Virus record (IMG/VR): IMGVR_UViG_2526164598_000016 | Reading direction: 5' to 3' (one strand) | DNA from: a virus | Taxonomy: Duplodnaviria > Heunggongvirae > Uroviricota > Caudoviricetes | DNA: 40,941 bases | Shown: one piece after another, positions 1,421 through 35,848 of the stretch | Position numbering within the stretch: the first letter of the stretch is position 1 | Layout: every line of letters starts with the position of its first letter | The notes under the pieces: model-generated | What the model was told of the DNA's origin: nothing | Database searches by the model: none | What the model saw: the letters and a program-made list of their open reading frames with translations, nothing else | Made by a program: the position numbers and the translations under genes

Positions 1421-3892
1421 TTAAAAATCAGCCTGATTCGGGATCAGTTTTTGCCAGATAGCTGAAACGTATTTTGCCTGGTAACGGGCATCATCCAGCG
1501 CATTGTGGCGCTCACCTTCGAATGGGATAGCAGTTCTGGCATCGAAGTCTACGGCTTTCCCCAGCTCAACGATTGTGCGTACATCGCGATCGTTGCAGTA
1601 GCGCCACGGGCAGGGGATACCCTGTCGTTCGTATGAACGGCGCAAAATCGTGTTGTCGAAGTTGGCCCCATTACCCCAGACCTGAACAAAAAACTCACCG
1701 GAGTTTTCGTCGATAAATTCCCGCAATTGCAGTAGTGCATCATCTAACGGGATTTCATCGGTCATAATGGCAGACTGCGCTTCACGTGATTGCTTCAGCC
1801 ACCATTTAATGACGTCACGATCAATGACTCCGCCAGCAGTATCCAGATCGATGGTCTTGCTAAATTCTGGTCCCATATCTCCGGTTTGCGGATCGAAAAA
1901 TATTGCGCCTATTGAGATAATCGGGGCATCGGGATTTTTTCCCATGGTTTCAAGGTCGATCATTAGATGGTCACACGTCCTGCTGGTGGATGTGATAACG
2001 TGATGACCGTTCATCGTAATTAAGGGATCTGCCGTCTCGCCAGTTTCACTATCGCTGGCGTGATCCTGAGCGCTACCAGCATTCTCCTTGTGTGGATGTT
2101 CAGCGCCTTCCATTTCCTTCGGATCATTTTCCTGAACTTCAACCTGATTCTCTTCATCGAATGTTTCCTGGTATGTTGCGTCACCCATCACCGCGCCACA
2201 ATCAGGGCAGTTGCCGCCACCGCTTTGACCGCAGGCGGTGCAGACTTTTTCCGGTTCCTGTTGCGCTACTGGCTCAGGTTGTTTCGTTTCTGGCTCGTTT
2301 TGTTGCGTATTTGGGCTGTTTTGTTCCGCTTTCTGGTCGTTCTGTTCCGATTCTTGCTGGTTCTGGTTTACAGAATCGCGGGTTTCAATCCCCTTTACCC
2401 ATTTCGGATCATTCGGGTCGCTAATCCCTGCAACAAATTCTCCGCGAGAGGCAGCAAGCAACTTATCGGCGTCAGGCTGGCTGATATTGGCTGCCTGCAT
2501 AATTTTGTTTACTTCGTCAGCGGTAACTTTTACCGGCTCTGGTTGTGCGGTCGTGTCAGATGCACCAGTATTTTGTTGTGAACCTGAGTACGTGCCGTTT
2601 TTACGTGCGAAGTATTCCTCTTTTGTGATTTCCGTAGCTCCCAAGGCTAGTGCTTTTTCCAGACCAGAAAGTTTGTTTGCGCGACCGTATTTTTCGCCAT
2701 CCTTGTCGGTGAAGAGGAAGTAGAACGGCCCCTCACGCTCTACAGATGGTTCGACTTCCACTTTGCATTCGGTTTTTTCGTTGCCCGGAATTGCCGTTTC
2801 CACTGCATCAGTTTCTGGTACTGGCGACGAGAGAGTATCAGTTGCGCTCTGATTTCTTCCTTCATCTTCAAACACGCCCTTTGTAGTCAGGTATTCAGTA
2901 ATGTATTTGTTCAGTGCCACAGGGTCTTTGTGAATGTCGATCGGACGTTCACGGACAAGGCCAAAAATAGTCTGGCGGTCGTAGCGAAGGGCATCAGGCT
3001 GTTTGCGCATTGATGCCGAGATACGCTTCCAGTCTTCGCGGTCGTTGTCGATAACTTCATTTTTTGCCCAGCGATGGATGCTGCCGTCAATGTTTCCGGC
3101 ATCCACATCACCAGGCCAGAGAGCGTAGGCCAGTTCGTCATCCAGTGTTTTCCATGTCTGCTTGTATTCGCGATGAATGGCAGCAATGACCGGGCTGATT
3201 TTTCCTGTTGAATTTTCACTGTGCTGTTGATTGGTTCTGGCGCGGGCGAGATCAACAACAGACGTGTATTTTCCGGTTTCCTTGCGTTCACCTTCGCGAC
3301 GTTTTTTCCAGATGCGCATCTCTGCCTGAATTTCGGGCCATTTGGCACCAGGCTTACATTTATGCTTAACCCACCCGATGGCATGCAGCTTAAGCTCCGG
3401 ATACATGGCGTTAACTTCTGGCATTTTCATCAACGCTTCAACGATATGTCCGTCGAATGTTGCCATGTCTTCCTGCAACAATTCCTGTGCGCTAATAACC
3501 ATATCAACGGTGATGTTTTCACATGTGTCGAACTTAACCATGACAGCGTTCTGTACTTCAGGGGCCAGCTTGTCAAAAGTGACGTTCATCGGATCGGATT
3601 CAGTCTCAACCGGGACAAAGGAAGCAGACTCCTCATCCCAGCGGTTTTCCTGCATATATTCAGCATCCCAGGAATCGAGGGCAGGGCGGGGTATACCGGG
3701 TTTATCCTCGCAGACAAGAAATTTATAAGCGCAGTCCTGAGCAGCCGGATAATGCTCCAGGAATTGCCAGTGAAATTTTGCGCGGGCGCGACGTTCATCA
3801 CCGGCTTCAATGGCAGTGGCTACAGCGACGGCACCTTCTTCCTTTATTGCCTGTTCGTCCGGAATGGCGGCGCAAATAAAGACTTTACTCAT
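1421..3892 (-). CDS. ExoVIII-like prophage nuclease; C-terminal DnaQ-like (DEDDh) 3'-5' exonuclease domain, central acidic/Q-rich linker with a CxxC…CxxC zinc ribbon
   Basis: 823-aa ORF; C-terminus has IDLETMG…, …GNGANFD…, …HNALDDA… exonuclease motifs; middle has KVCTACGQSGGGNCPDCG; N-terminus resembles the enterobacterial exodeoxyribonuclease VIII N-terminal family (recalled). Confidence 0.8.
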   Translation of the reverse strand: MSKVFICAAIPDEQAIKEEGAVAVATAIEAGDERRARAKFHWQFLEHYPAAQDCAYKFLVCEDKPGIPRPALDSWDAEYMQENRWDEESASFVPVETESDPMNVTFDKLAPEVQNAVMVKFDTCENITVDMVISAQELLQEDMATFDGHIVEALMKMPEVNAMYPELKLHAIGWVKHKCKPGAKWPEIQAEMRIWKKRREGERKETGKYTSVVDLARARTNQQHSENSTGKISPVIAAIHREYKQTWKTLDDELAYALWPGDVDAGNIDGSIHRWAKNEVIDNDREDWKRISASMRKQPDALRYDRQTIFGLVRERPIDIHKDPVALNKYITEYLTTKGVFEDEGRNQSATDTLSSPVPETDAVETAIPGNEKTECKVEVEPSVEREGPFYFLFTDKDGEKYGRANKLSGLEKALALGATEITKEEYFARKNGTYSGSQQNTGASDTTAQPEPVKVTADEVNKIMQAANISQPDADKLLAASRGEFVAGISDPNDPKWVKGIETRDSVNQNQQESEQNDQKAEQNSPNTQQNEPETKQPEPVAQQEPEKVCTACGQSGGGNCPDCGAVMGDATYQETFDEENQVEVQENDPKEMEGAEHPHKENAGSAQDHASDSETGETADPLITMNGHHVITSTSRTCDHLMIDLETMGKNPDAPIISIGAIFFDPQTGDMGPEFSKTIDLDTAGGVIDRDVIKWWLKQSREAQSAIMTDEIPLDDALLQLREFIDENSGEFFVQVWGNGANFDNTILRRSYERQGIPCPWRYCNDRDVRTIVELGKAVDFDARTAIPFEGERHNALDDARYQAKYVSAIWQKLIPNQADF

Positions 3893-3984
3893 TTTGTTTT
3901 ACCTCATTACAGATTTAAGGGTGAACAAATCCCTGCCATTGCTGGCATATAAGAATGAAACCGGATATTTATTACGGAACTGTT

Positions 3985-4176
3985 TTAAAGACCTGCCGGG
4001 ATTTCGTTATTATCCTGGTGAATAACTTTATCGACCGGGTAACAGTTACCGGGAATTTTCTGTTCGGTTGCTGCAGTCACACACTCCTGCATTGTCCTGT
4101 GAACACTGACTGCAATATCAACTGGCTCTCCGGAAACAAGAAAAACTGTCAGAACAAGTGCAAATGCTGTATTCAT
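3985..4176 (-). CDS. Small protein (63 aa) with N-terminal hydrophobic signal/TM-like segment
   Basis: MNTAFALVLTVFLVSGEPVD…; the start ATG overlaps the stop of the upstream small ORF (ATGA overlap, plus-strand tcat at 4173-4176); lies directly upstream of the nuclease gene in the same orientation. Confidence 0.4.
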   Translation of the reverse strand: MNTAFALVLTVFLVSGEPVDIAVSVHRTMQECVTAATEQKIPGNCYPVDKVIHQDNNEIPAGL

Positions 4177-4361
4177 TGCCAGCATCCTTTTTGTATCGGA
4201 CGTAAACGGGCCAGCATTGAAAGAATGCATATTTTATTTAATAGCTCCCGTTCGTGTTTTCTCTTGTTAATGGCATCTTCAGTAAATACAGGGTTACTGA
4301 TAGTGACACCAATTTCAAAACAACCTTCAGACGTATTAACGTTTGGTAATAACGTTTCCAT
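4173..4361 (-). CDS. Small hypothetical protein (62 aa), translationally coupled to the downstream small membrane/secreted ORF
   Basis: ATG at 4361-4359 preceded by GAGGA about 8 nt upstream (reverse-complement reading); ATGA overlap with the next gene. Confidence 0.35.
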   Translation of the reverse strand: METLLPNVNTSEGCFEIGVTISNPVFTEDAINKRKHERELLNKICILSMLARLRPIQKGCWQ

Positions 4362-4927
4362 TATCGCGTCCTCAACAATGAATTTTGTGATGCGGTGCCT
4401 GGTGCCTCCAGGTGACGTTAACCAGTTAACAATTAACGCCGGATACAGAGAATCCACCCATAACACTGTTTTTGGTTTTAACTGTTCCGCGTGCGCTCAG
4501 CCGCATTCACCACATCACAAAATTCACTTTAAAAAGGGCGGCAGAGCAGTCACGGAGTAAAACTGATACCGCCAAACGTCACCAGAAAATTGATAACAGA
4601 GGGCGTTGCAGCGGGGTTGTCACTTAAGCGTATGGTCAACCTGACAACCCGGTGTCCTCAACGGGGGAAGGAATAACCCCGCCATACTTACCGCCGCGCC
4701 ATTTCGCGGATTGCCACAACCGGAAGCGCACGGTCGACGAAAATTTAACGACAGGCTATCTATGAACCAGCTACCTCGCCGTGCGCTTTCGCGTTATGGT
4801 CTGACTTTTCAGGGAAATATCCTTTCAGTAAACTGTCAGTGCCGGATTCTTATCCGTGTCCGGCGCACGACCACACGCTGTCACGAGAGGTCTCCATTCT
4901 CAACCAGTAACCTCAATGGAGGATAAA

Positions 4928-5122
4928 ATGTCAGAGCAGGAGTTAAAACTTGGTGCATGTTATTGTGTTCTCAAGGAGCTGGTACACATGCTTCCATCTA
5001 CTCAGTATCAACAGTTAGTTGGCAATTTAAATCAGCGAATCGAAGCTATGTTAAAATCTGATGGTTTTAATAACGTAGAAACGCTGATGCTAAAAAGATA
5101 TCTTGATGGATTAATCAGATAA
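4928..5122 (+). CDS. Small hypothetical protein (64 aa), plus-strand gene within a minus-strand early region
   Basis: ATG at 4928 preceded by GGAGGA (4917-4922); about 450 bp of non-coding DNA upstream; the 3' end overlaps the convergent minus-strand gene by 12 nt. Confidence 0.4.
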   Translation: MSEQELKLGACYCVLKELVHMLPSTQYQQLVGNLNQRIEAMLKSDGFNNVETLMLKRYLDGLIR

Positions 5123-5449
5123 CATTTTTTTACGGCGTTCATATTCGTTAATATTTATGAAGCCTGTTGCCAGAAGCAGTTCGTTAATTTCATGGTTGTT
5201 TGGCTGTTTCTGGCTCTTTGAGCTGGGATCTTCCACTTCTTTTTCTGCAAATTGTTTTGCTGTATCCTCTGTGCCATGGATATTTAAAGCTGTATCTGAA
5301 AACAGCCCAGTAAACGCATCGCGCACATTACGAGCCATATTATCAGTGTCTTTTTTTGTTACCGATTCCAATTCAAGTTCGTTCAGACGATGACGAAGTG
5401 TGTGTGCTGCAATCTCCTGGATTGAAGGAGGTAAATCTTTAAATTCCAT
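5111..5449 (-). CDS. Hypothetical protein (112 aa), acidic
   Basis: The internal ATG (MEFKDLPPSIQ…) has GAGG upstream; the ORF track extends 4 codons further to 5461. Confidence 0.45.
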   Translation of the reverse strand: MEFKDLPPSIQEIAAHTLRHRLNELELESVTKKDTDNMARNVRDAFTGLFSDTALNIHGTEDTAKQFAEKEVEDPSSKSQKQPNNHEINELLLATGFININEYERRKKMLSD

Positions 5450-5460
5450 CGTCAACCTCA

Positions 5461-5700
5461 TCAGTCAGTGTTTCTTGCTAACCAGCGATGCGCACCAGCT
5501 GCGGTTTTAAACGTTTTACTTTTGGTATACGTCATCGCGGTGAAGGTGCCGTCCTGGTTAGGGAACACACCGCATACCAGAGATTCGTTGTTGCCAAGAT
5601 TGAGCGTATCCATGTTGACCTCATTTCCCCTTAACGCCGGGGTAGCGGAACAAAAAACCTGCTGCGCTGTTATACAAAGTGTTCCCGCCGTCATGTTCAT
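5461..5700 (-). CDS. Small hypothetical protein, first gene of the leftward early transcript (alternative start at 5613 gives 50 aa)
   Basis: 79-aa ORF; both candidate ATGs (5700 and 5613) have GAGG-like SD; lies just downstream of the PL-like promoter/operator segment. Confidence 0.35.
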   Translation of the reverse strand: MNMTAGTLCITAQQVFCSATPALRGNEVNMDTLNLGNNESLVCGVFPNQDGTFTAMTYTKSKTFKTAAGAHRWLARNTD

Positions 5701-5780
5701 ACGCCTCGGGCTGGCTACTTAACCCCTGACCACTGCCGGGTAACTCGAAGTATTTCCCTGCGTTCTGTGGGGCGGGGTGG

Positions 5781-5904: not shown

Positions 5905-6183
5905 TTAGGGAAACTGGCGTCTTGCGTGGATCACGTTTACTACTTCAACGCTTGATGTTGTTACGCGGTATAGAATTATATAGTTAGGGTGGGCTACAAT
6001 CTCACGCAAGCCAGGTACTCTGTCGCTTGGTGGGTATAAATACGGATGTTCGGATAACGGCAGCACACAACCCCTTAATCGCTGCCATAAGCGTTCAGCC
6101 GCATCTATGTCGAAACGAGCAATATAACTAGTTATATCATCTAGGTCGGTATCTGCGCTTTCAAGCCATAACACGGGTAACAT
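5905..6183 (-). CDS. RelE/ParE-family type II toxin (92 aa)
   Basis: MLPVLWLESADTDLDDITSYIA…VHARRQFP, typical ParE/RelE-fold sequence; start ATG sits 1 nt after the antitoxin stop (TAAAATG). Confidence 0.8.
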   Translation of the reverse strand: MLPVLWLESADTDLDDITSYIARFDIDAAERLWQRLRGCVLPLSEHPYLYPPSDRVPGLREIVAHPNYIILYRVTTSSVEVVNVIHARRQFP

Positions 6184-6184
6184 T

Positions 6185-6376
6185 TTACTGCTTGCTCCGT
6201 TCCTTACGCATCTTAGCAAAGCGTTCTGCCATTCTGCGCTCAACTTCGTCATGGGGAATTGCTGGGCGCGGATCTGCAAGGCTCGTTGCTACTTTCGCAC
6301 GCAGCCATTCGTTGTAACTGTTTTCTTGTTCAATGGTTTCAAATTCAGAAACCATTGGTGAAAGGGCTCTATTCAT
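6185..6376 (-). CDS. Cognate antitoxin (63 aa, ParD/StbD-like)
   Basis: Small acidic protein immediately upstream of and coupled to the toxin; GGAGG SD 6 nt upstream of the ATG at 6376. Confidence 0.75.
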   Translation of the reverse strand: MNRALSPMVSEFETIEQENSYNEWLRAKVATSLADPRPAIPHDEVERRMAERFAKMRKERSKQ

Positions 6377-6396
6377 GTTTCCTCCGGTTTTATAAC

Positions 6397-6675
6397 TCAG
6401 GCGCGGCGGCATTTTTGCGCCGCAATCCATCTCGCTATGAGATCTTCCATTGATTCTTTTTTCTGCTTTAACTCGCTGATTATCTGGCGTTGCTCATCCT
6501 CAGGGAAGGCTGAAAAAATCTGCAATAATTCCAGTTGATTAGACGTTAACCCTGCATGTGGTGGAGAAACCCCCGGTTGTTCTGCGTATTCCGCATCCAG
6601 ATACCCTTCCGGCATCCCGTATGTTTGCTCTATTCTTCTGGCAGCCTTTTCTCCAAACGAGGCTCTCCCACTCAT
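6397..6675 (-). CDS. Prophage repressor (CI-like recognition helix, DicA/RacR-like C-terminal region); the N-terminal part is displaced by a frameshift in an A7 tract (see findings)
   Basis: Frame continues upstream without a start codon as …KKEIRRLRLKEWFKDKTLPPKEKSYLSQLMSGRASFGEKAARRIEQ…; the only ATG (6767-6765) is one frame off across the A7 run; C-terminus has NQLELLQIFSAFPEDEQ. Confidence 0.6.
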   Translation of the reverse strand: MSGRASFGEKAARRIEQTYGMPEGYLDAEYAEQPGVSPPHAGLTSNQLELLQIFSAFPEDEQRQIISELKQKKESMEDLIARWIAAQKCRRA

Positions 6676-6864: not shown

Positions 6865-7167
6865 ATGACATTAAAAGAGTTTATTAAATCATTAAGGGTT
6901 GGTGATGCTAAGAAATTCGCGGCCAGACTTGGTGTATCGCCATCTTACTTATCGCAAATGGCGTCTGGACGAACAGCTATATCTCCAACCCGCGCCCTTA
7001 TGATCGAATCTGCGACGGAAGGCCAAGTAAGTAGGGCGGAGCTACGACCCCATGATTGGGAGCTTATTTGGCCTGAGTATGCGAGCGGCATTCGTTTGGG
7101 GCAAACACATGTAGTTCATGCTGAAGGTGATTGTAGTACATGCTTATCTGATGGAGTTGATTCATGA
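6865..7167 (+). CDS. Cro/YdaS-family HTH regulator
   Basis: MTLKEFIKSL…GVSPSYLSQMASGRTAISP…LRPHDWELIWPEY; resembles YdaS-type Cro proteins of Rac-like prophages (recalled); SD GAGGAAGG. Confidence 0.75.
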   Translation: MTLKEFIKSLRVGDAKKFAARLGVSPSYLSQMASGRTAISPTRALMIESATEGQVSRAELRPHDWELIWPEYASGIRLGQTHVVHAEGDCSTCLSDGVDS

Positions 7168-12879: not shown

Positions 12880-13056
12880 TTGCTGCGGGTGCTTGAGGCT
12901 ATCTGCCTCAGGCATGAACACCAAAAGGCAGATAGAGAAAAGCCCCAGTTAACATTACGCGTCCTGCAAGACGCTTAACATTAATCTGAGGCCCAATCTA
13001 TGTCTCACAAATGTAGGTTAGCCTCTTACGTGCCGAAAGGCAAGGAGAAGCAGGCT
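12880..13056 (-). ncRNA. Candidate hok leader with antisense (sok-like) regulatory region
   Basis: Leader has complementary elements CTATCTGCC / GGCAGATAG and a TGAGGC…GCCTCA hairpin upstream of hok, as in hok/sok loci; antisense promoter not pinpointed. Confidence 0.3.
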
Positions 13057-13212
13057 ATGAAGCAGCAAAAGGCGATGCTAATCGCCCTGATCGTCATCTG
13101 TTTAACCGTCATGGTGACGGCACTGGTAACGAGGAAAGACCTCTGCGAGGTACGAATCCGAACCGGCCAGACGGAGGTCGCTGTCTTCACAGCTTACGAA
13201 CCTGAGGAGTAA
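13057..13212 (+). CDS. hok: Hok/Gef-family type I toxin (51 aa)
   Basis: MKQQKAMLIALIVICLTVMVTALVTRKDLCEVRIRTGQTEVAVFTAYEPEE matches the Hok family (TM helix, …TRK.LCE.R…EV.AF.AYE…). Confidence 0.8.
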   Translation: MKQQKAMLIALIVICLTVMVTALVTRKDLCEVRIRTGQTEVAVFTAYEPEE

Positions 13213-17587: not shown

Positions 17588-17663
17588 GGCCCTTTAGCTC
17601 AGTGGTGAGAGCGAGCGACTCATAATCGCCAGGTCGCTGGTTCAAATCCAGCAAGGGCCACCA
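17588..17663 (+). tRNA. tRNA with CAT anticodon (Ile2/Met-type; ileZ-like of Stx phages)
   Basis: Cloverleaf by hand: acceptor stem GGCCCTT/AAGGGCC, anticodon loop CTCATAA, encoded CCA end. Confidence 0.85.
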
Positions 17664-17763: not shown

Positions 17764-17840
17764 GCGTTGTTAGCTCAGCCGGACAGAGCAATTGCCTTCT
17801 AAGCAATCGGTCACTGGTTCGAATCCAGTACAGCGCGCCA
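17764..17840 (+). tRNA. tRNA-Arg (anticodon TCT)
   Basis: Acceptor stem GCGTTGT/ACAGCGC, anticodon loop CTTCTAA, encoded CCA end. Confidence 0.85.
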
Positions 17841-18304: not shown

Positions 18305-18696
18305 ATACATATCTGGATTATCACCGGTTACGGTAAAAAGTGATTGCTTACTGTTTTTGTGAATGGCATTGCAGCAGCCGGATAATGTCAGTGCTGGCTG
18401 ACGGTGTGCTGGTGGCGGGTGTGGTGGTTGCTGCTTTCCCGTTGCTGAAAAAGAAAACGCCAGACTGTTAGCCGGGTATCAGTTAGCGGGAGAAATTTTT
18501 AAATACTTCACAATTCAGGCGGTTGACTGTTGTCTGGTTTGCGGGGAGTTTGTTAAAAGAAACTGGCATGGTGAATCCCCCTGTGCGGAGGGGCAATCAG
18601 CGAGTAGGTATATGGGATAATCGCGGATTCAGGTGCTGGTACTGAATTCACCGGGAGGCACCCGGCACCATGCAATGGCACATAGCGCCACTCTCC

Positions 18697-18731
18697 AGCC
18701 CCTCTCCGGAGGGGCTGTTTATATTGATTTT
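18697..18731 (+). terminator. Hairpin plus T-rich tract (plus-strand terminator-like) inside the cargo slot
   Basis: AGCCCCTC-TCCG-GAGGGGCT followed by GTTTATATTGATTTT. Confidence 0.45.
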
Positions 18732-34162: not shown

Positions 34163-34696
34163 ATGGCGATAAAAGGGCTTGATCAGGCGATTGACAATCT
34201 GAGCCGGGTTCGTAAAAACGCCATTCCGGCGGCTTCAGCAATGGCCATTAACCGCGTGGCCACAACGGCGATTAATCAGTCTTCATCACAGGTTGCCCGG
34301 GAGACAAAGGTTCGCCGGAAACTGGTTAAGGAACGGTCCAGACTGAAACGGGCGACGGTCAGAAATCCGAATGCCAGAATTATCGTTAACCGCGGTGATC
34401 TCCCTGTGATTAAGCTGGGGATCAGGATGCTGGGGCGTCGCCCGAACAGCATACTTAAAGCCGGTCAGCATCGGTATCAGCGGGCATTTATTCAGCGATT
34501 AAAAAATGGTCGCTGGCATGTCATGCAGCGTGTGGCCGGGAAAAACCGTTACCCCATTGATGTGGTGAAAATCCCGATGGCGGCCCCACTGAAACAGGCA
34601 TTTGATGAGAATGTTGACCGTATCCGGCGTGAACGCCTGCCTAAAGAACTGGCATACGCGCTGAAACAACAACTGAGGATTGCAATAAAACGATGA
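34163..34696 (+). CDS. Z: Tail completion protein Z
   Basis: MAIKGLDQAIDNLSR…QRVAGKNRYPIDVVKIPMA… like lambda gpZ. Confidence 0.85.
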   Translation: MAIKGLDQAIDNLSRVRKNAIPAASAMAINRVATTAINQSSSQVARETKVRRKLVKERSRLKRATVRNPNARIIVNRGDLPVIKLGIRMLGRRPNSILKAGQHRYQRAFIQRLKNGRWHVMQRVAGKNRYPIDVVKIPMAAPLKQAFDENVDRIRRERLPKELAYALKQQLRIAIKR

Positions 34697-35088
34697 AACA
34701 CACTGACATTCGTGCCGCAGTGCTGGATGCACTCGAGCAGCATGAACACGGGGCGACGCTGTTTGATGGTCGCCCCGTTGTTTTTGACGAAGAGGATTTT
34801 CCTGCGATCGCGGTTTATCTGACGGATGCAGAGTATACCGGTGAAGAGCTGGATGCAGATACCTGGCGGGCCACGCTGCATATTGAGGTGTTTTTACCGG
34901 CACAGGTACCGGATTCAGAGCTTGATCAGTGGATGGAAAGCCGGATTTACCCGGCGATGACCGCGATCCCGGCACTGGCAGGACTGATTACCACGATGGT
35001 TACGCAGGGCTATGAGTATCGTCGTGATGACGATATGGCGTTATGGAGTTCTGCAGATCTGACTTATTCCATTACATACGAGATGTGA
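34693..35088 (+). CDS. U: Tail terminator protein U
   Basis: 131 aa, [15 protein letters not shown]… like lambda gpU. Confidence 0.85.
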
Positions 35089-35095
35089 GGACGAT

Positions 35096-35848
35096 ATGGC
35101 AACACCAAATCCCCTTGAGCCGGTAAAAGGTGCCGGTACCACTCTGTGGGTTTACAACGGCAAGGGTGATGCTTATGCAAACCCGTTGTCAGACGATGAC
35201 TGGCAGCGACTGGCTAAGGTGAAGGATCTGACGCCGGGCGAGATGACGGCAGAATCCTACGATGATAACTACCTGGATGATGAAGACGCGGACTGGACCG
35301 CGACCGGGCAGGGGCAGAAATCTGCAGGTGATACCAGTTTTACGCTGGCCTGGAAACCGGGAGAGGAAGGCCAGAAAGGGCTTATAGGCTGGTTTGAAAG
35401 CGGCGATGTCCGGGCCTATAAAATCCGTTTTCCGAATGGCACGGTGGATGTGTTTCGTGGCTGGGTCAGCAGTATCGGTAAGGCCGTGACGGCGAAAGAA
35501 GTGATCACCCGCACGGTGAAAGTCACTAACGTGGGTAAACCTTCTGTAGCGGAAGAACGCAGCAAAATTACGCCGGTCAGTGCGATTAAGGTGACGCCGA
35601 CATCCGGTACGGTGGCAAAAGGGAAAACAACCACCCTGACGGTTTCTTTTGAGCCGGAAAGTGCAACCGACAAGACGTTCAGAGCGGTTTCCGCCGATCC
35701 GTCGAAAGCCACCATTAGTGTGAAAGATATGACAATTACGGTAAACGGCGTGGCGACAGGTAAGGTGCAGATCCCTGTGGTGAGCGGAAATGGTCAGTTC
35801 GCCGCAGTGGCTGAAGTCACCGTTACTGAAGCGGGCGCTGCAGGGTAA
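35096..35848 (+). CDS. V: Major tail tube protein V (with C-terminal Ig-like domain)
   Basis: 250 aa; lambda gpV position and sequence style. Confidence 0.9.

Follow-up and report, generated by a model that had tools for sequence, protein, structure and literature searches.

A conserved 64-codon gene in an exchangeable cassette facing the leftward early operon of a Qin-like lambdoid prophage

We analyzed two convergent genes in the early-left region of a caudoviricete sequence of 40,941 nt (IMG/VR record IMGVR_UViG_2526164598_000016; hereafter, the window). All positions are those of the window unless another locus is named, with "+" denoting the rightward and "-" the leftward strand. The two open reading frames (ORFs), a rightward one of 64 amino acids (aa) and a leftward one of 112 aa, meet tail to tail inside a low-G+C segment that starts behind a conserved, structured leader. 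The features at the locus are listed below (HP, hairpin; SD, Shine-Dalgarno sequence).

4806-4834, +: candidate promoter TTTTCA-17 nt-TAAACT, found in our own hexamer scan (8/12 matches, the best within 330 nt)
4841-4927, +: conserved leader of ~90 nt, structured, ending at the ATG
4841-4846 and 4859-4864, +: leader hairpin HP1, GCCGGA pairing with TCCGGC
4869-4892, +: leader hairpin HP2, with two A.A mismatches in the stem of the window's copy
4891-4898, +: anti-SD element CUCCAUU, complementary to AAUGGAGG at 4915-4922
4928-5122, +: 64-aa ORF
4930-5298: exchangeable low-G+C cassette (33-38% G+C versus 46-57% in the flanks)
5091-5132: A5/AU-rich hairpin/U7 motif spanning both stop codons (-7.6 kcal/mol; z -2.1 on the + strand)
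5111-5449, -: 112-aa ORF

The coordinates of the rightward ORF and its GGAGGA SD, as given in an original prediction made from the sequence alone, were verified. The ORF runs from an ATG at 4928-4930 to a TAA stop at 5120-5122, encodes 64 aa (MSEQELK...DGLIR), and has GGAGGA at 4918-4923, 4 nt ahead of the ATG. Among copies from E. coli, Salmonella, and Citrobacter, the ratio of nonsynonymous to synonymous substitution rates (dN/dS) in this frame is 0.22-0.31, the lowest of the six frames (the other five range from 0.30 to 2.3). The ORF is intact in E. coli, in Salmonella (86% aa identity), and in Citrobacter (72%). It matches PHROG 4987 over its full length (E = 3e-49) and is annotated as WP_001295058.1 by the Prokaryotic Genome Annotation Pipeline (PGAP) in every close relative examined, in prophages with differing immunity regions. 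Full-length copies occur in 152 of 5426 complete E. coli genomes (148 at ≥99% identity), and a scan of viral contigs with the family profile returned 28 essentially identical copies together with one 45%-identical relative. The rightward ORF is a genuine conserved small prophage gene.

Other searches for this gene were negative. Species-representative genomes scanned with the family profile gave no confirmed locus, tblastn of the 64-aa protein against 50,697 GenBank phage records returned nothing, and a megablast search with 4400-5500 and a blastn search with 4860-5470 left 4870-5303, including the whole + gene, without a match. A literature search on accession numbers found nothing. In one copy (L033/L168), the gene is truncated at residue 49 and the minus ORF lies 1256 nt away, likely as the result of an insertion.

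The leftward ORF runs from 5449 to 5111 and encodes 112 aa (MEFKD...); its ATG is preceded by GAGG at a distance of 6 nt. Use of another ATG, at 5461, would lengthen the product to 116 aa, and this codon has one base in common with the TGA stop of the adjoining ydfA-like gene. The N-terminal domain of ~50 aa (MEFKDLPPSIQEIAAHTLR...DAFTGL) is conserved, with 24 invariant columns within residues 1-49 of the family alignment (A5), and the tail is variable. The protein matches phrog_2151 (E = 1.8e-55) at profile positions 1-101 of 212 and has the traits of that type, i.e., the MEFKD N-terminal domain and a location directly downstream of a DUF1391 gene. It is without the C-terminal domain of the 212-aa form, stopping at profile position 101/212 (PGAP: "missing C-terminus"). 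PGAP labels the ORF a partial pseudogene because only its ~50 first residues match the PGAP reference proteins. Its dN/dS is 0.39 overall (estimates 0.30-0.50) and 0.30 for codons 51-108, which lie outside the overlap with the + gene. The AlphaFold2 model of the 112-aa protein (mean predicted local distance difference test score [pLDDT] 67) has a helical hairpin, with residues 53-83 disordered, and was too weak for a fold search.

On the left, the junction of the cassette coincides with the start codon of the 64-aa gene; its right-hand boundary falls within the minus ORF and varies with the relative compared (5242 or 5298). Homology to an O157:H7 prophage, strain P393, and K-12 Qin ends on the left at 4869-4933, and in the nearest relatives it extends up to the start codon. 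When viral contigs were scanned for the leader pattern, 120 loci were returned. The leader, GGAGGA, and ATG precede unrelated ORFs that comprise six ORF types and at least five PHROG families, as follows.

Slot ORF of 69 aa, PHROG 4274; minus partner of 212 aa
Slot ORF of 64 aa, PHROG 4987 (the window's gene); minus partner of 112/119 aa
Slot ORF of 80 aa, zinc-ribbon-like, PHROG 10133; minus partner of 186 aa
Slot ORFs of 61 and 59 aa, PHROG 17494; own short minus tails
Slot ORF of 100 aa, PHROG 8894; own short minus tail

Opposite every slot ORF stands a convergent minus ORF whose product combines an N-terminal MEFKD domain with a cassette-specific tail, and the spacing between the two ORFs across cassettes is either 0 nt or an overlap of 12/33, 44, 68, 75, or 77 nt. 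The leader is far more widespread than the window's gene (963 versus 152 E. coli genomes). Salmonella carries two tandem modules (64+/119- and 69+/200-), and in Citrobacter the 69-aa and 64-aa genes stand in tandem without a minus ORF. Searches of Pfam, NCBIfam, and PADLOC with the proteins of the alternative cassettes gave no toxin-antitoxin or defence match. Two side observations concern these relatives. To the left of the Salmonella module (L006, 1900-3450), there are three tandem repeats of a C4 antisense RNA, isrK, and a Phage_ASH gene. Eight contigs (MPNKKEIRLLKNRLNAW) carry a frameshifted 69-aa gene, which in six of them stands beside an intact 212-aa partner.

The same leader with its ATG was found in 120 viral contigs, in Salmonella, in Citrobacter, and in two further prophage types. 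The distant prophages L136 and L139 retain HP1 and the CUCCAUU/GGAGG pair; their HP2 stems are very different yet self-complementary (CTCCAT/ATGGAG and CCCAAC/GTTGGG), and one E. coli leader variant carries a double change from C-G to U-A. From the predicted anti-SD:SD pairing, we infer that the leader may sequester the ribosome-binding site of the + gene. Two versions of the 6-nt HP2 loop occur among prophages, CTGTCA and TGACAG, each the reverse complement of the other (window 4878-4883 versus L003 1254-1259), and they look as if the hairpin tip had been flipped. A known small RNA (sRNA) or riboswitch was rejected as the identity of the leader: Rfam searches, both at the gathering threshold and at E up to 1, found only DicF.

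The predicted transcription start lies at the foot of HP1, at about 4840. The spacing between the best sigma-70-like hexamers and the ATG is the same in the E. coli sequence and in both copies from Salmonella, although the sequence around them differs. The promoter-like site of Salmonella (TTGTCC-18-TGgTATAAC) is stronger than that of E. coli. Judged from these sites, the + gene is probably expressed independently, plausibly from a promoter of its own.

The overlap of the two ORFs spans 5111-5122. The + stop TAA (5120-5122) falls inside the minus ORF, which ends at 5111, in agreement with the convergent pair and 12-nt 3' overlap of the original prediction. The TTA at 5111-5113 is both the Leu62 codon of the + gene and the complement of the TAA stop of the minus ORF. 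Among the 60 copies seen, the Leu62 codon is TTA in 49 and TTG in 11; the Salmonella codon is TTG as well. The change from TTA to TTG is synonymous in the + gene, and it converts the minus stop to Gln and adds seven more codons, giving a minus product of 119 aa and an overlap of 33 nt. One substitution, silent for the + gene, is thus enough to reset the overlap; selection here acts on the + gene and not on the overlap. With a length that shifts between synonymous TTA and TTG, and that varies from 0 nt to a 77-nt overlap in other cassettes, the 12-nt overlap does not stand as a regulatory or designed feature. It looks incidental and would simply be the place where the minus ORF hits its first stop within the cassette. 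The motif at 5091-5132 is, from its sequence and predicted folding, a possible weak two-way terminator; a terminator scan between the genes called no canonical intrinsic terminator, this motif included.

The remainder of the early-left region, in which the two genes are embedded, contains the following features.

1-1131, -: integrase
1421-3892, -: RecE-type exonuclease
3985-4176, -: DUF1482 ydfD-like gene
4173-4361, -: dicB, cell-division inhibitor (Pfam DicB, E = 6e-37; annotation of locus L001)
4536-4587, -: DicF sRNA gene (Rfam RF00039, 76.7 bits versus a gathering score of 48)
4588-4869, -: untranslated region (UTR) upstream of dicF in the leftward operon, common to K-12 Qin
5461-5613, -: ydfA-like DUF1391 gene, the first gene of the leftward operon (Pfam DUF1391, E = 6e-29)
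starting at 6865, +: cro/YdaS-like gene

Window 4101-5780 shares 98.8% identity with locus L001. The dicBF locus of K-12 Qin matches window 3901-4869 at 97% identity, a stretch that takes in dicB, DicF, and the long UTR. The 64-aa ORF had been described as the sole rightward ORF of a leftward block, which is true between the integrase (1-1131, -) and the cro-like gene (6865). The ~450 bp of upstream DNA that had been called non-coding is indeed without a protein gene, but it holds the DicF sRNA gene (4536-4587, -) and its precursor UTR. DicF is cut from a polycistronic RNA by RNase E and RNase III (PMC5069750; PMC10448788). The leftward operon comprises the ydfA-like gene, the 112-aa gene, dicF, dicB, the ydfD-like gene, and the exonuclease. 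Because dicF and dicB lie downstream on the leftward strand, the leftward transcript must cross the entire + gene in antisense (PMC5069750). The antisense relation, from which the original prediction drew interference between the two mRNAs, is thus not confined to the 3' ends and spans the whole + gene. Over-expressed dicF and dicB are toxic (PMC10448788). When compared to the Qin dicBF operon (ydfA-ydfB-ydfC-dicF-dicB-ydfD), the window has the ydfA homologue at 5461-5613, DicF, dicB, and the long UTR, whereas in place of ydfB and ydfC it carries the 112-aa minus gene, opposed by the 64-aa gene.

The same geometry is found in well-known lambdoid elements. In the lambda annotation, sieB (34482-35036, +) abuts N (35037-35438, -) with a 0-nt gap inside the pL operon, and in the annotation of the K-12 Rac prophage, sieB (+) and ydaF (DUF1391, -) share 4 nt; to the left of sieB lie the KilS sRNA gene and kilR, which encodes an FtsZ inhibitor. 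The sieB genes of lambda, P22, and Rac are, like the 64-aa gene, rightward genes inside a leftward early operon that converge with the upstream early gene, and the Rac neighbors KilS and kilR correspond to DicF and dicB of the window. The window order matches this Rac/lambda type (division inhibitor, sRNA, rightward gene, early-left genes, repressor), and the Rac order kilR, KilS, rightward sieB, and ydaF (L134, 2406-3312) is also that of the window. By analogy, this suggests that "division inhibitor - sRNA - opposing accessory gene" may be a general layout of these prophages. Because the lambda and Rac sieB genes are arranged alike, a rightward slot gene touching a convergent neighbor is a known lambdoid arrangement. 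The likeness does not extend to the products: SieB proteins are annotated with 162-184 aa, compared to 64 aa for the predicted soluble helical protein of the window, and the latter showed no homology to SieB in Pfam or PADLOC.

The cassette also resembles the morons of lambdoid phages in being a low-G+C insert whose flanks are conserved in relatives. It has a ribosome-binding site of its own, a promoter candidate, and a motif that weakly resembles a terminator, and it is positioned antisense to lytic genes. Its flanks are contiguous or differently filled in related phages, and its base composition is unlike that of the flanks. It differs from morons in its junctions: the left one falls exactly on the start codon, after the shared leader, and the right one within coding sequence, and each exchange thereby also rewrites the tail of the neighboring protein. 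Genes that lie antisense to a lytic operon are typically accessory loci expressed in the lysogen (PMC7067206).

Another comparison concerns colicins. The immunity genes of pore-forming colicins lie on the strand opposite to the colicin gene. The layout here is similar: opposite a gene under induction control, whose C-terminal part varies and co-varies with its neighbor, lies a small gene that could be expressed constitutively. The locus differs from the colicin immunity genes in having no homology to them, no evidence of toxicity, and partners that are not obligate.

The AlphaFold2 model of the 64-aa protein (pLDDT 88) has helices at residues 3-20, 24-43, and 49-63, and the product is predicted to be a soluble, three-helix protein. 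All six family members hit PF10796 (IraP) as their best Pfam match, aligned to IraP residues ~20-83. The distant member P0008 reaches 24.5 bits, above the gathering cut-off of 23.2 bits (aligned to 20-83), and P0006 reaches 24.2 bits, aided by translated leader sequence. IraP is an RssB anti-adaptor that stabilizes RpoS and, as is the 64-aa protein, a small helical protein. It differs in its size (~86 aa), the 64-aa protein aligning to profile positions 32-82 without a counterpart of residues 1-20, and in its location: the IraP gene lies next to phoA, whereas the 64-aa gene is prophage-borne. NCBI names a Citrobacter homologue IraP, and this name rests partly on an upstream extension that is translated leader. 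As a side observation, gene callers extend the small ORF through the leader from TTG or GTG starts, giving products of 76-103 aa (L005 520-831 in Citrobacter; P0004, P0005, P0006). On the profile matches, true homology, with the 64-aa protein as an N-terminally shortened IraP relative, is a serious but minority prospect, and a function as RssB anti-adaptor is rated lower than that.

Based on these properties, we consider it somewhat probable, at roughly 60%, that the 64-aa gene is an accessory "moron" in a fixed sieB-type slot of Rac/Qin-type lambdoid prophages, where exchangeable ORFs stand behind a shared leader. The slot is the position of a rightward gene between the ydfA/MEFKD genes and dicF-dicB. 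Recombination would place unrelated small ORFs directly behind the ATG of the leader, using two flanks: the leader itself and, at the far end, the part of the minus gene that encodes the conserved N-terminal domain. In the lysogen, with the leftward promoter repressed, a weak promoter of its own would drive transcription of the small gene alone, and sequestration of the ribosome-binding site would damp translation of the message. After induction, leftward antisense transcription through the whole gene for DicF/DicB would shut it off.

Several results weigh against this reading or its parts. A standard promoter scan missed the E. coli site, which with 8/12 positions falls below the threshold; the promoter proposed for the + gene in the original prediction nonetheless remains plausible by virtue of its position-conserved sigma-70-like hexamers. 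RNAalifold predicts HP1 and the anti-SD:SD helix, but the pairs are nearly invariant and covariation neither supports nor refutes them. K-12 Qin has HP1 and an HP2-like hairpin without any + gene, so it may be the leftward RNA that part of the leader serves. As to the protein, the window's copy scores only 14.4 bits against PF10796 (E = 0.062), below the 23.2-bit cut-off, and alignment of the family to the IraP alignment with hhalign gave E = 3.4e-4 with a probability of only 38%. BLASTP searches for IraP returned nothing. Among 1.8 billion proteins, an exhaustive profile search gave six hits, none of them IraP. Foldseek searches of the pLDDT-88 model against PDB and BFVD found nothing significant; against PDB, no match had E <1 and IraP (8gkv) was not among the 32 listed, in a comparison that discriminates small helical monomers poorly. 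Finally, joint inheritance of the + gene and the partner tail over large distances, as judged from sequence comparison, is not predicted by a purely incidental overlap.

This last point stems from two distant relatives of the 64-aa protein, P0008 and P0009 (45% and 36% identity). The genes of both follow the same leader and point rightward within prophage blocks of leftward orientation; each meets a convergent minus ORF, with an overlap of 4 or 11 nt. Their partners have unrelated N-termini (one without a Pfam match, the other with an HTH_3-like region). The partner proteins end in a shared motif, LLLxxGxIxxxEY/F, encoded just past the + stop (window, NELLLATGFININEYERR; L136, RLLLDAGLISMAEFTSKYG; L139, LRLDIGMMSMAEYTSRHG). 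BLASTP comparisons of the partners gave E = 2e-7 for L136 versus L139 and E = 0.049 for the window versus L136. In L136, the 74-aa partner (4201-4425, -) contains an LLLxxGxIxxxEY-like motif twice (RILLAQQILGKGNEY and RLLLDAGLISMAEF). The association between + gene and tail is stronger than linkage of neutral DNA would lead one to expect, and with it a model in which the two form a pair stays alive.

In this alternative, which we regard as unlikely, the small protein, expressed in the lysogen, would bind or neutralize the variable C-terminal part of the induction-expressed minus protein. The logic would be that of an immunity gene versus a colicin gene or that of an antitoxin-like safeguard against leaky early expression. 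It would account for each + ORF family having its own minus tail, all convergent and tightly packed, for distant relatives of the 64-aa protein facing partners with unrelated N-termini but the same LLLxxGxIxxxEY/F end, and for purifying selection on the tail of the minus ORF (dN/dS 0.30). However, linkage alone makes adjacent sequences co-vary, and the genes are not obligate partners: Citrobacter retains both small + genes with only a decayed tail remnant and no minus ORF, a related E. coli locus has a 129-aa minus-family gene without a + gene, and the frameshifted 69-aa gene of the eight contigs stands in six cases beside an intact 212-aa partner. The last seven codons of the tail are, moreover, dispensable, and no toxin, antitoxin, or defence profile was matched. 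The toxin-like pair considered in the original prediction thus found no backing in the Pfam, NCBIfam, and PADLOC searches with both proteins. A type II toxin-antitoxin pair or defence system was rejected as a candidate, given that the genes are convergent and not co-transcribed, that profile matches are absent, and that each gene is found alone.

We rate somewhat lower the more far-reaching proposal that the 64-aa family and the LLLxxGxIxxxEY/F tail constitute a conserved two-part module. Its small protein would be an IraP-like anti-adaptor or decoy, expressed in the lysogen, that acts against host RssB (raising RpoS) or else targets an early lytic protein at its tail to guard against leaky induction, and the leader would be a programmable slot exchanging matched pairs.

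It is improbable that the conserved function is rightward transcription itself, curbing leaky expression of toxic dicF/dicB by collision or antisense RNA, with the ORFs as interchangeable passengers. Such a role would fit the conservation of leader and promoter position in front of wholly different ORFs and the toxicity of over-expressed dicF and dicB (PMC10448788), and polymerases from the early-left promoter would run into opposing + transcription on their way to dicF. Yet the 64-aa ORF is under purifying selection in its own frame in three genera, its strong ribosome-binding site is conserved, and Salmonella and other loci have the module without DicF. This proposal is also compatible with an accessory gene in a sieB-type slot, not exclusive of it. 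It is very improbable that the + ORF is a chance frame or the minus ORF a dead remnant, with no gene pair at all: the PGAP label on the minus ORF ("incomplete; missing C-terminus"), the numerous chance ORFs of 60-100 codons in the region, and the missing tblastn match among the 50,697 GenBank phage records would point that way, but a chance ORF or pseudogene is rejected on the dN/dS of both frames (well below 1, each the best or joint-best of six frames), the + ORF is intact in three genera with its own PHROG family, and minus ORFs of 112-138 aa bearing the same tail are common.

Other features were noted elsewhere in the window. A PaaA2/ParE-type toxin-antitoxin pair lies at 5905-6430 (-; ParE_toxin, E = 2e-16; PaaA2, E = 1e-19), with a 92-aa ORF upstream of it (6397-6675, -) that is without a Pfam match. 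This ORF is possibly a PaaR2-like regulator of a three-gene module located between ydfA and the cro-like gene. A sok antitoxin RNA at 12887-13062 (+; Rfam, 121.7 bits) implies a hok/sok module in the prophage, and the late-regulatory part contains two tRNA genes (17588-17660 and 17764-17837, +) and an STnc100 sRNA match (18537-18726, +; 132 bits).

Overall, the locus looks like an accessory-gene cassette of a rather ordinary kind, in which a few points remain intriguing. If the sieB-type slot reading is true, the 64-aa gene would be one more uncharacterized accessory gene at a classical lambdoid position, and this position would be served by a shared unit of promoter, leader, and ATG, after which small genes of at least five unrelated families are swapped in and out. 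The analysis is of value for annotation, given that PGAP calls the partner a pseudogene and that one homologue was named IraP partly on the basis of translated leader, and it can help in picking candidates when phage exclusion or host reprogramming is screened for. Only the IraP lead and the association between + gene and partner tail could raise the significance of the locus. If an RssB anti-adaptor were encoded here, it would provide a prophage route to altering the general stress response, and if the small proteins and the partner tails prove to be matched pairs, the locus would matter more.

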